Source: an uncultured Clostridia bacterium
Lineage (GTDB): Bacteria; Bacillota; Clostridia; Oscillospirales; Acutalibacteraceae
Direction of reading: 5' to 3'
DNA length: 64,000 nucleotides
Assembly (NCBI GenBank): GCA_946186665.1
Contig: CAMHOE010000002.1
Span: 31,014 to 95,013, forward strand
The position numbers were made by a program, and so were the translations under genes. Positions 191 through 43,336 of this stretch are shown here, piece after piece; position 1 is the stretch's first letter, and the number at the start of each line of letters is the position of its first letter. The notes beneath the pieces are model-generated. The model saw only the letters and a program-made list of their open reading frames with translations. It was not told the DNA's origin and searched no databases.

Positions 191-242
191 TAAAAAGTCT
201 CCTGCAAGAGTTTCCTCTTACAGAAGACAGATAGTAAGAATA

Positions 243-704: not shown

Positions 705-770
705 ATCTTTGTTTCCTCCCTTTGTTAACCTTATTTATTTAAAATGTGTAGTCTACTCCCCCGAAAGGGA

Positions 771-1440
771 AAGCTTCAAGCTAACCACTAACCACTATTT
801 CGTCTTTGAGTACGCTGCGTATACGGCGGGTGACCCCGCAGGACGACTTAACAACGCATCTGCTTTTGTCTGAACCGTCCGCGTCACGCTCTAAAGGAGC
901 GCTTTAGCTACTACTGTACACGTCTCAAAATGCCGAACAGGAACCCTCTGCTGAAATCGGAAGTTTAAACTCTGACCACTTCCCACTAACCGCTAACCAC
1001 TATTTCGTCCTTGAGTACGCTGCGTATACGGCGGGTGACCCCGCAGGACGACTTAACAACGCATCTGCTTTTGTCTGAACCGTCCGCGTCACGCTCTAAA
1101 GGAGCGCTTTAGCTACTACTGTACACGTCTCAAAATGCCGAACAGGAACCCTCTGCTGAAATCGGAAGTTTAAACTCTGACCACTTCCCACTAACCGCTA
1201 ACCACTATTTCGTCCTTGAGTACGCTGCGTATACGGCGGGTGACCCCGCAGGACGACTTAACAACGCATCTGCTTTTGTCTGAACCGTCCGCGTCACGCT
1301 CTAAAGGAGCGCTTTAGCTAATACTGTATACGTCTCAAAATGCCGAACAGGAACCCTCTGCTGAAATCGGAACTTTAAACTCTGACCACTTCTCACTAAC
1401 CACTAACCACTATTTCGTCCTTGAGTACGCTGCGTATACG
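771..1440. repeat. 205-bp tandem repeat, about 3.2 copies. Each unit holds CCACTAA-type heptads, a copy of the last ~37 nt of the crp-family CDS, and the ~125-nt module M10.
   Basis: The anchor ACCACTATTTCGTC occurs at 791, 996, 1201 and 1406. Units differ by about 1-5 mismatches. The last partial unit is the true 3' end of the CDS at 1396-2004. Confidence 0.95.
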
Positions 1441-2004
1441 GCTCAGCGATTCCGGCTTTATCCCAAGATATGTAGCTATATGCTTCTTTGGTACACGTTC
1501 AACAAGCTCGGGATACAGCTTCTTGAAATGAAGATAACGCTCTGTTGCGTTCTCCACAAGAAAGCCGTTTTCTCTGTACATCTTGTACCGCAGACTCTGC
1601 TCCAGCATATTTATCCAGATAGTTTTCAGACCTTCATTTCCCATGATAAAGGCTTTCAGCTCGGAGACATCAAACAGCATTACAACAGTCTCTTCAATAG
1701 TCTCCCACATACATATATGCTCCTTATAGCCCATCATGCCCTCATCCATGCACCAGCCGCCCGGGATACCAAAGCCCCTTGTAATGTCGTTTCCGTCACC
1801 GTCAATGTAATAGCTTCTTACAAGACCGTCAACAACTATACCGGCTGTACCGGCTGTTTCGCCTATACCTGTAACAACGGCGTTTTTGGGATATACCCTG
1901 AACCTTGCCATCTCCACAGCACGACTCAGCACACCTTCCTCAAATCTGACATCGTATTTATCAGCAAGGGCTTTAAGCTGTAAAACTATAGACTCCTTAT
2001 TCAT
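1396..2004 (-). CDS. Crp/Fnr family transcriptional regulator (cNMP-binding domain plus C-terminal HTH)
   Basis: 202 aa with a C-terminal HTH (HIATYLGIKPESLSRIRSVLKDE). The start is 1 nt from the stop of the upstream CPBP gene. The stop TAG and the last residues IVVSG lie inside the heptad repeat. Confidence 0.8.
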   Translation of the reverse strand: MNKESIVLQLKALADKYDVRFEEGVLSRAVEMARFRVYPKNAVVTGIGETAGTAGIVVDGLVRSYYIDGDGNDITRGFGIPGGWCMDEGMMGYKEHICMWETIEETVVMLFDVSELKAFIMGNEGLKTIWINMLEQSLRYKMYRENGFLVENATERYLHFKKLYPELVERVPKKHIATYLGIKPESLSRIRSVLKDEIVVSG

Positions 2005-2005
2005 A

Positions 2006-2728
2006 TCACATCACTCCGTTTACTACAAACGCATAAATTATAGCCGCTAAGTTTGCTCCGCCGTGAGCGATCATTCCCGGCAGAAGGTGATTTGTCTTTT
2101 TGTACGCAAATATCCACACAAGACCTGCCGCAAACGAGAAGCCGAAATTATACCAGTCAAGCATTGCGAACATAAGGTTGAAAAGGAGCAGTGCTTGTGT
2201 CTCACCCATGACCTTGCCGACAAAGCACTTTGCAAGCCCTCTGAAATATATCTCCTTGAAAATGCCGCTTACAAATGCCAGCGCTATAATACTCATAACT
2301 GTAGTGGACAGAGATAGGTCGCTTTGGTTATAAGCCGACATATCTGTACCTCCCAGAGTAATGCCATACGAATAAACAAGGCTGAGAACACACGTAACTG
2401 CAAGCGCACCGATACCAAAAAGAATATCCCTGACAAGAGTTTTCTTCTGCGTTATCTCTTTCATAATGCTTATGTCATTCTTTTTGTAAAGCATTATCGC
2501 TGAGGGCAGAAGTATCATATTTACAAGTATAAGTACAATACAATAGATTACTCTGGGATATGTGGCATAGCTTGCGACGTCAAATACGTTCATGCCCGGT
2601 TTACTGCCGGAATAAGCCATAAACACCTCAAAGCCTGCGACAAAGAACGTCAGTACTGTGGTTATGGTCAATGCCCTCTCTGCGTTCCTGAAATTGGTTT
2701 CTTTTTCTTTGATATTGATTTCTTTCAT
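2006..2728 (-). CDS. CPBP family (CAAX/Abi) intramembrane metalloprotease
   Basis: 240 aa polytopic membrane protein with a KEIYFRG motif (EExxxR-like) and a later conserved-His region (MIAHGGANL). GGAGG RBS. Confidence 0.7.
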   Translation of the reverse strand: MKEINIKEKETNFRNAERALTITTVLTFFVAGFEVFMAYSGSKPGMNVFDVASYATYPRVIYCIVLILVNMILLPSAIMLYKKNDISIMKEITQKKTLVRDILFGIGALAVTCVLSLVYSYGITLGGTDMSAYNQSDLSLSTTVMSIIALAFVSGIFKEIYFRGLAKCFVGKVMGETQALLLFNLMFAMLDWYNFGFSFAAGLVWIFAYKKTNHLLPGMIAHGGANLAAIIYAFVVNGVM

Positions 2729-6325: not shown

Positions 6326-6913
6326 GTCAGGCGGGTAACCCCGCCGGACGACTTAGAACGCATAGACTTTATTAAGAACCGTCCGCGTCACGCACCTAAA
6401 GGTGCGCTTTGGCTACTGCTGTACACGTCTACAACTGCCGAGTGGAACCCCTACGTCAAAGATTTACTATGTAAATTTTTGACACCTCCCCTTTCAGGAG
6501 AGACGGAAATAGTGAATAGTGAATGGTGAATAATGAATAGTGAATAGTTGTGGTGCGTTTTCGCTTAGGCGAAAACGAATTATAGTAAGTATAATATAAA
6601 CTACAACTTCAAACAGTACAGGCGCACATATTTACGGAGGAGGAGAAACTGTCTGCTCGAAGAGTGCAGCCGAAACAGCAGGCTCTTAGCCTGCGCCGGC
6701 GGATGGGGATGAGGGTCTGCCGGTTCCGCGCCGTTAATCGCGGACAGTAAAAGTTTTGGTTATACTAAACAGAGTGAGCTTTAGCGAACGCCAACGCGAA
6801 TCGGGTGCGCAAACCTTGCGCCGCCGTTTATCGCGGACAGGAAAATGTTTGGTCATACTATCAGAGTGAGCTTTAGCGAACGCCAACGCGAATCGGGTGC
6901 GCAGGCTCTGCGC
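6326..6913 (-). repeat. Mosaic intergenic repeat in the opposite orientation to 4242-4672. Plus-strand order is M10, M7, H2, M8, M5, M4, then (M3-M2-M1) x2.
   Basis: The reverse complement of 6666-6715 matches M4 of 4337-4396. H2 here reads gaatagtgaatagtgaatggtgaataatgaatagtgaatag. A 93-bp unit is duplicated (ccgttaatcgcgg at 6731, ccgtttatcgcgg at 6824). The last hairpin abuts the uvrC stop. Confidence 0.9.
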
Positions 6914-13317: not shown

Positions 13318-14931
13318 TTACTCTTCATAGTACTCATCGCCGGTATAATCATAGGTCTCATCGTCCGCATAATCTTCATCTTCTTCGTAATAGTACGCAT
13401 CCCCGAAATCATAATCTTCATCCGTGCCGTCATCGTCTGTATACTCGCCGTCATCATATGTGCCGTCATCGTCTGTATATTCGCCGTCATCATCCGTGCC
13501 GTCATCGTCTGTATACTCGCCGTCATCGTCCGTGCCGTCATCGTCCGTATACTCGCCGTCATCATATGTGCCGTCATCGTCCGTATACTCGCCGTCATCA
13601 TCCGTGCCGTCATCGTCCGTATACTCACCGTCATCATATGTGGTCTCATCGTCGGTTTCCTCTCCGGTGGTTTCGGGGTCGCCGGTGTCAGCGTCACTTG
13701 TCTCATCCTCATTGGCGCCGCTTTCTTCTGCTTTGCTGCTTTCAGACGAGGACTCTGTCTTTTTCTTTGTGTCCGAAGTTGTCTTAGGCTTTGATACCTT
13801 TGACGCCTGAGCGGAGCTTTCATCAGCCTGTGAGCTGTAGTATGACTTTCCTCCCTCAGCGGAGCAAAGAGACACGTCAAGTATTCCTTTGTCCTTTTCG
13901 GAGAGACTCTTTTCGATTATCTTCTTTGCCGTTTTGAGCTTATAGTCAATGCTTTCCGGCGTACCGATGACGATACGCAGTCCCTGCTTGGTGGTAAGCG
14001 TTATCTTTGACATATTGGAAATATCAATGATATCGATCGTACCCAGCTTATATTTCTCCTCAGCGTCAAGGATCTCGTTGATATATCCCTCTACGTTTTC
14101 ATCCTTGTACTTTACAGCAGAGGACAGCTTCGGTTCTTTGAGCTTCGCACCCATTATCTTGGGTATGTTTGTATTTCGCAGGGTGTCGGAAATATCTATT
14201 ATCTTTCCGCTCTCGCTGAGCAGAACATACTTACCCTCACTCTCGATAACGCAGGTGGGAGTTGCTTCCTTGACTGTTATCACAATCCTGTTGAACAGTT
14301 CTTTGCTGATAGTTACCTTTTCTATGTACGGGAATTTCTCCCAGATATTTTTTTCTCCCGGAGATGTATTGCAAAGGATGAGGTTATCACCCTGTTTTAT
14401 CATGCAGGAGGATTTTATCTCATCTCCGCTGTAGCGTGATTTTCCCTTTACTTCTATTTCGTCTATCTTGAAGAATACCGTAAGGGAAAGCACAAAGCAT
14501 ACAGACACAAGCACAAGCAAGGTCACCGCATAAAACAGCACTCTTAGTACCTTGCGCTTATAGGGGCTTCTGGGTTCCTTCGCCGGAGGCAAAGGCTTTA
14601 CATAGTGCAGACCGCTTTCTCTCGGAGGTCTTTTCAGCATATTCTCGGCACTCTTGTCTATCTCTCCCTGAAACGCCATGTCCTCTTTATAGCTTCCGGC
14701 ATCATTCATCTTGATGCTGTTTTTGCTTCTGTTCTTTTTAAGACTGGTATTGCTTATTTTCCTTACCGGCTGCGGAGTACTCTTTGCACTTCCTGAGCTT
14801 TTCTCGTTTGGATTTCTTCTGCCCTTTTGAGGCGGAGATTTTCCGCTGCCGGCGGTTCCTTTTATATTTGACGGTATGGGTTTTTTCTTGCCTTCACCGC
14901 TTCGGTCTTTACCCGATGGCTTTTTGCTCAT
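13318..14931 (-). CDS. ftsQ: FtsQ/DivIB-type cell division protein with a basic N-terminus, one TM segment, POTRA/FtsQ domains and a long acidic repetitive C-terminal tail
   Basis: Sits between murG and ftsZ. TM segment VLFYAVTLLVLVSVCFVLSLTVFF is followed by IDEIEVKGKSRYSGDEI (POTRA-like). The tail is (DGEYTDDDGT[YD]D)n. Confidence 0.75.
   Translation of the reverse strand: MSKKPSGKDRSGEGKKKPIPSNIKGTAGSGKSPPQKGRRNPNEKSSGSAKSTPQPVRKISNTSLKKNRSKNSIKMNDAGSYKEDMAFQGEIDKSAENMLKRPPRESGLHYVKPLPPAKEPRSPYKRKVLRVLFYAVTLLVLVSVCFVLSLTVFFKIDEIEVKGKSRYSGDEIKSSCMIKQGDNLILCNTSPGEKNIWEKFPYIEKVTISKELFNRIVITVKEATPTCVIESEGKYVLLSESGKIIDISDTLRNTNIPKIMGAKLKEPKLSSAVKYKDENVEGYINEILDAEEKYKLGTIDIIDISNMSKITLTTKQGLRIVIGTPESIDYKLKTAKKIIEKSLSEKDKGILDVSLCSAEGGKSYYSSQADESSAQASKVSKPKTTSDTKKKTESSSESSKAEESGANEDETSDADTGDPETTGEETDDETTYDDGEYTDDDGTDDDGEYTDDDGTYDDGEYTDDDGTDDDGEYTDDDGTDDDGEYTDDDGTYDDGEYTDDDGTDEDYDFGDAYYYEEDEDYADDETYDYTGDEYYEE
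13424..13639 (-). repeat. In-frame 36-bp tandem repeat x6 encoding the acidic FtsQ tail
   Basis: The unit gtgccgtcatcgtctgtatactcgccgtcatcatat starts at 13424, 13460, 13496, 13532, 13568 and 13604. Confidence 0.9.
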
Positions 14932-38583: not shown

Positions 38584-39100
38584 CGCAGAGCCTGCGCTCC
38601 CGATTCGCACTCTCGTTCGCTAAAGCTCACTCTGATATTCAAACCGAACATTCACTGCCCGCGTTTAACGGCGCAAATTTGTCAGACAATATTCCCCATC
38701 CGCCGGCGCAGGCGCAGAGCCTGTGCTCCCGATTCGCGGCGGAGCGCCTCCGCTGTCGATTCGCGCTCTCGTTCGCTAAAGCTCACTCTGACAATATGAC
38801 CAATACTTTTCCTGCCCGCGTCGGACGGCGCAGAACCAGCAGACATCCATCCCCATCCGCCGGCGCAGCCTTAGGGCTGCTGTTTCGGCTATACTCTCTG
38901 AACAGAAAGTTTTTTTGCTCACTCAACCTTATGCGCCTGTATATTCCAATGTACAATGTTCAATGTAAAATTTTCATTATTCTGTACCAAAACTACAGAC
39001 GTGAACGAAAATAGCCAAAGTGCTCCTCTATGGAGCACGACGCGGACGTTCCTTAGCATAGTTTATGCGTTCTAAGTCGTCCAGTGCGGTCACGCACCGG
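38584..39100 (+). repeat. Large mosaic repeat: M1-M2-M3-(partial M4)-M1-M1'-M2-M3-M4-M5-H3-spacer-M10(rc)
   Basis: cgcagagcctgcgctcccgattcgc / gcgcagagcctgtgctcccgattcgcg / gcggagcgcctccgctgtcgattcgcg; two copies of gttcgctaaagctcactctga; ccgccggcgcagccttagggctgctgtttcggct; ccaatgtacaatgttcaatg; ..atgcgttctaagtcgtccagtgcggtcacgcacc. Confidence 0.9.
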
Positions 39101-43070: not shown

Positions 43071-43336
43071 CTGCCCGCGTTTCTCCGCCCAACACGCCCC
43101 TTACGGTGCGCTTATGGGCGGTTTTGGTTTTGGAGGAAAGTTAAAGTCGTGTACTGTAATAGCCAAAGTGTTCCCTATGGAGCACGATGCGGACGGTTCA
43201 GACAAACATAGATGCGTTCTAAGTTGTCCAGTGCGGTCACGCACCGACGCGGACGGTTATATCAAAAGCAGCTGCGTTGTTAAGTCGTCCTGCGGGGTCA
43301 CCCGCTGCGTTGTTAAGTCGTCGGCCGGGTCACCCG
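42999..43336 (+). repeat. Mosaic repeat beginning inside the mtaB 3' end: M1-M2-M3, spacer, M10(rc) with an internally triplicated arm
   Basis: gtgcagagcctgcactcccaattcgcgg cggcgttcgctaaaactcactcagacattctgaccgaaact ... atagccaaagtgttccctatggagcacgatgcggacgg ... gcgttctaagttgtccagtgcggtcacgcacc / gcgttgttaagtcgtcctgcggggtcacccgc / gcgttgttaagtcgtcggccgggtcacccgc. Confidence 0.9.

Follow-up and report, generated by a model that had tools for sequence, protein, structure and literature searches.

The window, that is, the whole stretch of 64,000 nucleotides analysed here, carries close to its first letter a short series of minus-strand genes into which a tandem repeat array is set. Read along the minus strand, a CAAX-protease-like gene (2006-2728) lies upstream of a Crp/Fnr-like regulator gene (1396-2004), which is followed by the array (781-1442), by a GNAT acetyltransferase gene (243-704; Pfam Acetyltransf_9, E=3.2e-12) that has a Shine-Dalgarno sequence to itself, GGGAGG at 711-720 of the + strand, and by a terminator-like hairpin found in a terminator scan (197-228, minus strand). 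The CAAX-protease-like gene stops 1 nt ahead of the regulator ATG (TGA T ATG on the minus strand, window 2004-2008), and this closeness suggests that translation is coupled and that the three genes form a CAAX-regulator-GNAT operon. Between regulator and GNAT gene the spacer measures 691 nt, 615 nt of which are three repeat units; a relative, genome G008, has the same crp-to-GNAT order with a plain 202-nt spacer. Further along the window, 13343-13702 holds dense direct repeats with periods of 15, 21 and 36 nt, among them 13 overlapping 108-nt copies (family D1).

Tandem Repeats Finder (TRF) described the array as 3.2 copies of a 205-nt period with 98% matches, 0% indels and a score of 1275, and a repeat search returned three 259-nt copies, each 205 nt from the next (family D2). 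The anchor ACCACTATTTCGTC is found at 791, 996, 1201 and 1406; by chance, 0.01 matches would be expected, and four occurrences were reached in 0 of 100 shuffles. On the coding strand, GCCGTATACGCAGCGTACTCAAGGACGAAATAGTGGTTAG is likewise found 4 times in the array. All three analyses bear out the initial annotation, which had recognized a 205-bp tandem triplication with the anchor at these positions. With its constant period and its highly similar copies in head-to-tail order, the feature is a tandem repeat array of the minisatellite or VNTR kind.

On the plus strand, each unit begins with module M10 (98 nt) and linker K (46 nt), continues with 33 nt of four to five CCACTAA-type heptads (TAGTGGT-type when read on the strand of the gene) and closes with 28 nt, TCGTCCTTGAGTACGCTGCGTATACGGC, which represent, in reverse complement, the ten final codons of the regulator gene and encode (S)RIRSVLKDE. 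U1 (828-1032) is thus divided into M10 (828-925), K (926-971), heptads (972-1004) and a dead gene-tail copy T1 (1005-1032), and U2 (1033-1237) correspondingly into M10 (1033-1130), K (1131-1176), heptads (1177-1209) and a dead gene-tail copy T2 (1210-1237). U3 (1238-1442) comprises M10 (1238-1335), K (1336-1381), heptads (1382-1414) and T3 (1415-1442), which on the minus strand is the original coding tail and fits the family consensus SRIRKAMKEE. At the opposite end, U0 (781-827, plus strand) is a partial copy of 47 nt with two heptads (781-799) and a dead gene-tail copy T0 (800-827), and its homology to the full units breaks off within the heptads. The gene's last codons hence close each unit, as had been proposed, together with the view that the array copies the gene's 3' end along with downstream repeat modules; the conserved part of M10 is, however, 98 nt long and not the ~125 nt given before. 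In BLAST searches of the whole 2.55-Mb, 101-contig assembly, the 28-nt coding tail matched at this locus only, the heptads gave scattered matches and linker K had almost no further copy. Since the tail matches nowhere else and codes for the conserved C-terminal end seen throughout the family, the gene must be its source and the other three tails are copies.

U1 and U2 do not differ at all. U3 departs from both at five positions (window 1321, 1329, 1373, 1393 and 1402; by type C/A, C/T, G/C, C/T and G/A), and U0 shows one mismatch against the matching end of U3 and two against U1/U2. The outer heptad-plus-tail copies, U0 and U3, have a base in common that is changed in the inner ones. With 0-5 differences per 205 nt, the earlier view that near-identical units reflect a recent amplification can be maintained. 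Directly beyond U0, an older, diverged hairpin module K' (745-780, plus strand; tcccccgaaaggga followed by aagcttcaag) lies outside the recent array. Comparison with composite copies on contigs C31 and C34 showed that this type of module normally sits before CCACTAA heptads. A diverged fourth unit at 700-780 was considered and rejected, as K' and K are only ~55-60% alike by eye, a weak likeness, and gave no close MAFFT alignment; we treat K' as a probable older paralogous module.

With a probability of roughly 70%, we regard the feature as an ordinary local tandem DNA amplification in a very repeat-rich genome, without evident function. It is rather unlikely that the copy number is an assembly artefact, with fewer or more units in the genome and a repeat loop traversed the wrong number of times. 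The count comes from one draft assembly (101 contigs, 2.55 Mb) whose contigs often end in repeat arrays (C3 95686-95916, C7 5-1073, C54 1-658, C20 1-262), and a short-read assembler could miscount two units that are 100% identical over 205 nt. From the identity of U1 and U2 in a fragmented draft it follows that the exact count could be off by one or so. Against a wholly artefactual array, however, stand three distinguishable versions, U0, the U1/U2 type and U3, each with private variants; the 47-nt heptad-plus-tail segment itself varies (A/T, G/C and A/C at unit positions 165 and 183), so that at least two M10 copies and at least three gene-tail copies are backed by distinct sequence. Other arrays that are nearly perfect survive in the same assembly as well (216 bp x 2.0 and 148 bp x 2.0, both at 99%). 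Together, the junction between M10 and the gene tail and the three versions of the unit argue that the duplication is real. No second assembly of the species and no exact record of the regulator protein were found in the collections searched, and a 22-mer of the gene tail was absent from JGI metagenome contigs. The locus is well suited to testing assemblies for copy-number errors.

M10 is by far not restricted to this locus. BLAST of one unit against the 2.55-Mb assembly found 139 full-length copies, and the best of those elsewhere in the genome reaches 88% identity; of 178 matches, only ~20 run past unit position 100, in agreement with a conserved extent of 98 nt. The module is mostly intergenic, with 20 of the 139 copies overlapping a crude ORF (at least 110 aa) by more than 30 nt, and its neighbouring modules vary from copy to copy. 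High copy number and variable module combinations characterize it as a mosaic intergenic repeat of the BOX or REP type. Examples within the window lie at 6333-6452, 38980-39099 and 43128-43246. Among the genomes and contigs searched, M10 appears to be confined to this species: it was absent from 24 congeneric and 16 same-order genomes, and its core pattern (25 specified bases) was found neither in 185,579 GTDB representative genomes nor in JGI metagenome contigs.

Across 134 distinct copies, two small M10 hairpins are kept by double-sided, compensatory changes. In the 5' stem, T-A alternates with C-G and C-G with G-C, and the central stem pairs in 126-133 of the 134 copies with several pair types. 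Two 5'-hairpin variants predominate, GTGCGTGACCGCAC with ~95 copies and GCGGGTGACCCCGC with ~36, which are two compensatory pair changes apart. These hairpins might be indicative of a functional array in which three M10 copies, acting as RNA or as protein-binding DNA hairpins, tune read-through from the regulator to the GNAT gene or form a copy-number switch, and in agreement with this the two genes flanking the array share one orientation, and no terminator intervenes before the end of GNAT. In co-directional spacers, moreover, M10 is sense in 44 and antisense in 22 cases, a 2:1 bias that could mean relevance at the RNA level, although M10 at this locus is antisense to both flanking genes. 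Both stems are palindromic and fold on either strand, which fits a DNA-level repeat equally well, and hence hairpin conservation cannot tell RNA from DNA. No Rfam match was obtained at the gathering threshold or at E<=5, and on both strands the folding of the unit did not surpass that of shuffled sequence (z = +1.06 and +0.36). Within the array we found no promoter-like or terminator-like site, and no ORF of at least 40 aa on the strand of the gene. The relative has the same gene pair without such an element, and the useless gene fragment carried in the units fits passive co-amplification. We therefore consider a functional array improbable; a sign of function appears to be absent from the locus, but missing predicted structures or signals are no proof of functionlessness.

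A further claim of the initial annotation concerns the regulator gene. There, it had been proposed that the protein ends unusually early after its helix-turn-helix (HTH) domain because the repeat had replaced the original 3' end of the gene, truncating the C-terminal wing of a Crp/Fnr protein, with amplification of the junction following later. Our analysis of the ORF, its Pfam matches, homologues and the nearest structure points to an intact, full-length regulator of 202 aa. The Pfam evidence taken by itself is weak: cNMP_binding (PF00027) matches with 26.4 bits, under its cut-off of 27.5 (E=6.8e-6), and HTH_Crp_2 (E=0.0037, below the curated cut-off) spans only profile positions 22-52 of 70, so that the canonical wing is indeed absent. 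Precomputed PF00027 matches are found on most homologues. A search of 5.8 billion proteins gave 1736 homologues, the closest 68% identical over 98% of the length; the best 120 of these 1736 mostly have 197-200 aa, with SLSRIRKAMKEE directly before the stop as the usual ending. All 18 homologues inspected end in PESLSRIR-x-x-x-K/R-E/D-E/D (written out, PESLSRIRKAMKEE or something close to it), after which 0-7 residues remain. The same end point is seen in PDB 3DN7 (194 aa), the nearest solved structure (E=1.2e-9, aligned residues 32-192), where the alignment reaches residue 190 at the LSxIR recognition-helix motif and the chain ends 4 residues past it. The regulator probably shares the domain order of this short, wing-less protein and differs from it in a repeat-derived tail of five residues, IVVSG.

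Seven congeneric orthologues (51-67% identity) end in KEE, RDE, KDE or similar, directly followed by the stop, and have no repeats downstream. As homologues end at the same motif without any repeat, the outcome that the initial annotation itself had named as speaking against replacement, the short C-terminus is a family trait. With a C-terminal HTH, an early end and a total of ~195-200 aa, the proteins form a short, wing-less Crp/Fnr subfamily; judged by these alignments, the wing is lacking throughout the subfamily and the regulator is very probably not truncated. What the repeat did contribute is found at 1396-1413 (minus strand), where ORF, homologue C-termini and unit comparison agree on a heptad-derived end. 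After the shared ending SRIRSVLKDE, the regulator carries IVVSG, which is missing from most homologues, and its last codons and stop, ATA GTG GTT AGT GGT TAG, are drawn from the heptads, whose arrays elsewhere in the genome recurrently have AAATAGTGGT as their edge. That heptads supply VVSG and the TAG stop had been recognized correctly, with isoleucine now to be added. By the alignments, the heptads took over the stop codon, perhaps the last codon, and nothing more, and the protein is 5 residues longer than the norm and not shorter. A replaced 3' end is thus very hard to sustain. Because the first gene-tail copy is still joined to the gene, the regulator is unaffected by the amplification.

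Even less credible, to a degree that we dismiss it, is a mobile origin of the cassette, either as an element with a long target duplication or as part of a diversity-generating retroelement with a template and a variable repeat at the gene's 3' end: the gene's 3' end repeated just downstream superficially resembles a VR/TR pair and the order heptads plus tail, cassette, heptads plus tail a target-site duplication, but neither reverse transcriptase nor transposase is found among the neighbours within 10 kb (CAAX-protease and GNAT genes and, further off, the housekeeping genes transglutaminase-like, CoaD-like, RsmD-like and UvrC), and the unit differences are not adenine-specific. The same two observations led us to reject a diversity-generating retroelement as such. 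Insertion of a MITE or transposon with target-site duplication was rejected as well, since the other 136 M10 copies lack unique flanking direct repeats and the only repeats found around the 139 copies are other module arrays. In the scan of all M10 copies, no second cassette had the same unique DNA on both of its sides; that coding DNA was captured is hence an accident of junction position and not a property of the element. Mobilization by a RAYT or GIY-YIG enzyme was rejected because neither the Y1_Tnp remnant on contig C5 nor the genome's only small GIY-YIG gene on contig C15 has an adjacent M10. The former (C5:17311-17643, outside the window) is an IS200-like Y1 transposase remnant with an internal stop codon; the latter (C15:30817-31044, also outside) stands alone after a different mosaic module (ggggaaaaccc...ccccatacccctttcc).

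In every unit a single novel junction recurs, at which GTATACGGC is joined to GGGTGACC (827/828, 1032/1033 and 1237/1238), while the gene itself continues from GTATACGGC into TCAGCG; a single join repeated in this way, with so little homology, is what an illegitimate first duplication typically leaves. The GC or GGC at the junction is common to the usual 5' flank of M10 (..ggcGGGTGACC, ..agcGGGTGACC), and as other M10 copies are typically preceded by the same bases, the join would have used 2-3 nt of microhomology. We assume that the crp-GNAT spacer was first colonized by mosaic repeats, with heptads abutting the gene, then linker K and M10, and that the heptad array displaced the stop codon, so that the ORF came to run 5 codons into the heptads. 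An illegitimate join at the GC/GGC microhomology may then have linked the 5' edge of M10 (..GC before GGGTGACC) to the sequence of gene plus heptads, 47 nt into it (after ..GTATACGGC). The result would be a direct duplication of 205 bp in which 28 nt of coding DNA were included.

Either unequal homologous recombination or slippage during replication, acting between the copies, would subsequently have altered the copy number at least twice, in an older step that splits U3 from U1/U2 (2.4% apart) and in a very recent one that made the identical U1 and U2. Unequal homologous recombination is a plausible expansion route and a natural way to enlarge such an array, in line with the original suggestion that the junction was amplified in this manner. 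As the units are 98-100% alike and the best non-local M10 copy is only 88% identical, the units must be far younger than the spread of the family. Simple duplication yields whole-number copies, whereas the array has 3.2, with a partial copy of 47 nt that ends within the heptads; from this it follows that an extra event has to be postulated. One more heptad-to-heptad exchange might have removed the outermost M10-K pair. Alternatively, the initial event could have been a template switch in two steps, leaving at the microhomology and returning at the heptads. The genome contains no recent donor copy (best non-local M10 88%, K almost without other copy), on which ground templated insertion from a recent genomic donor was rejected, and this lack slightly favours the heptad-to-heptad exchange over the template switch. 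We infer the order and mechanism of these events; what the sequence shows directly is the array with its composition and junction, and that the gene is intact.

In bacteria, tandem amplification starts with an illegitimate or short-homology join, after which RecA-dependent unequal recombination changes the copy number, as studied in Salmonella and E. coli. The array resembles such amplifications in its one novel junction with 2-3 nt microhomology, in its near-identical head-to-tail copies and in that its inner copies are more alike than its edge copies. Unlike them, it has a unit of only 205 bp without a whole gene, and hence no dosage benefit that could be selected, and at one end it breaks off in a partial copy that borders on an array of 7-nt repeats. 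Like bacterial minisatellite or VNTR loci, it is a non-coding array of constant period at a gene junction that is likely to vary in copy number, but its unit is made of dispersed modules and a captured coding fragment instead of a simple, locus-specific sequence.

Pneumococcal BOX elements have the structure boxA-(boxB)n-boxC, and REP elements with their BIMEs are mosaics. The repeats at our locus are, like these, modular, hairpin-forming and of high copy number between genes, variably combined and sometimes in tandem; they have no sequence relation to either family, M10 is limited to this species within the genomes and contigs covered, and unlike for REPs with a RAYT, no linked mobilizing enzyme was found beside M10. 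Heptameric intergenic repeats have been described in Xanthomonas and Nostoc (GGGAATC type; PMC4692102) and in Beggiatoaceae (TAACTGA; PMC4679880). They are likewise reported as 7-nt tandem arrays concentrated between genes, and the array studied here abuts a gene end; our heptads differ in their TAGTGGT unit, which is not G-rich in the G-quadruplex sense, and in overlapping an ORF end to which they supply the stop.

The locus thus is a clean example of how dense, lineage-specific intergenic repeats reshape gene boundaries, and matters little on its own. Three effects on the boundary can be named: the stop codon was moved and five residues were added, the spacer grew from ~200 to ~690 nt, and dead copies of the gene tail were left behind. 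As regards annotation, the regulator should be taken as intact and its short C-terminus as normal for its family. Greater weight would be due only if a specific mechanism, and not generic recombination, turned out to make cassettes grow. One could imagine, for instance, that they spread and grow by replicative template switching between heptad arrays and module edges, carrying unique DNA along; the array would then be a coding capture caught in the act, and its copy number might vary in the population, thereby modulating regulator-to-GNAT read-through. We think it quite improbable that this is so.

Genome-wide TRF results are in agreement with an ordinary amplification. About ten other intergenic arrays consist of the same modules; their periods are 136-297, and they hold 1.9-2.7 copies at 91-99% match. 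This genome thus amplifies its module cassettes habitually, and incomplete copies at the ends of the arrays are frequent. Among these module arrays, the one described here has the most copies and the highest score, and it is the only one that clearly holds part of a well-supported gene. It is nevertheless not very unusual for the genome, but an ordinary tandem amplification within a remarkable repeat-rich background. Tandem composites that bear M10 together with other companion modules were also seen at C20:30059-30491, C21:7758-8265 and C2:13534-13836 (contig coordinates; the C2 site lies upstream of the window), with periods of 216, 207 and ~206 bp, respectively, a closeness that may be coincidence. 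The first 58-65 nt of M10, from the 5' hairpin to CCGTCCGCGTCG, form tandem arrays of their own with 3-4 copies at 96-99% identity (C3:95686-95916, C27:28252-28446, C24:25501-25692, C9:59122-59367), and short GGTGCGTGACC stutters often stand ahead of full M10 copies. At C39:2658-4760, outside the window, TRF additionally found a CRISPR-array-like structure with the repeat CTTTTCCCCGCACATGCGGGGGTGATCC and a period of ~61.
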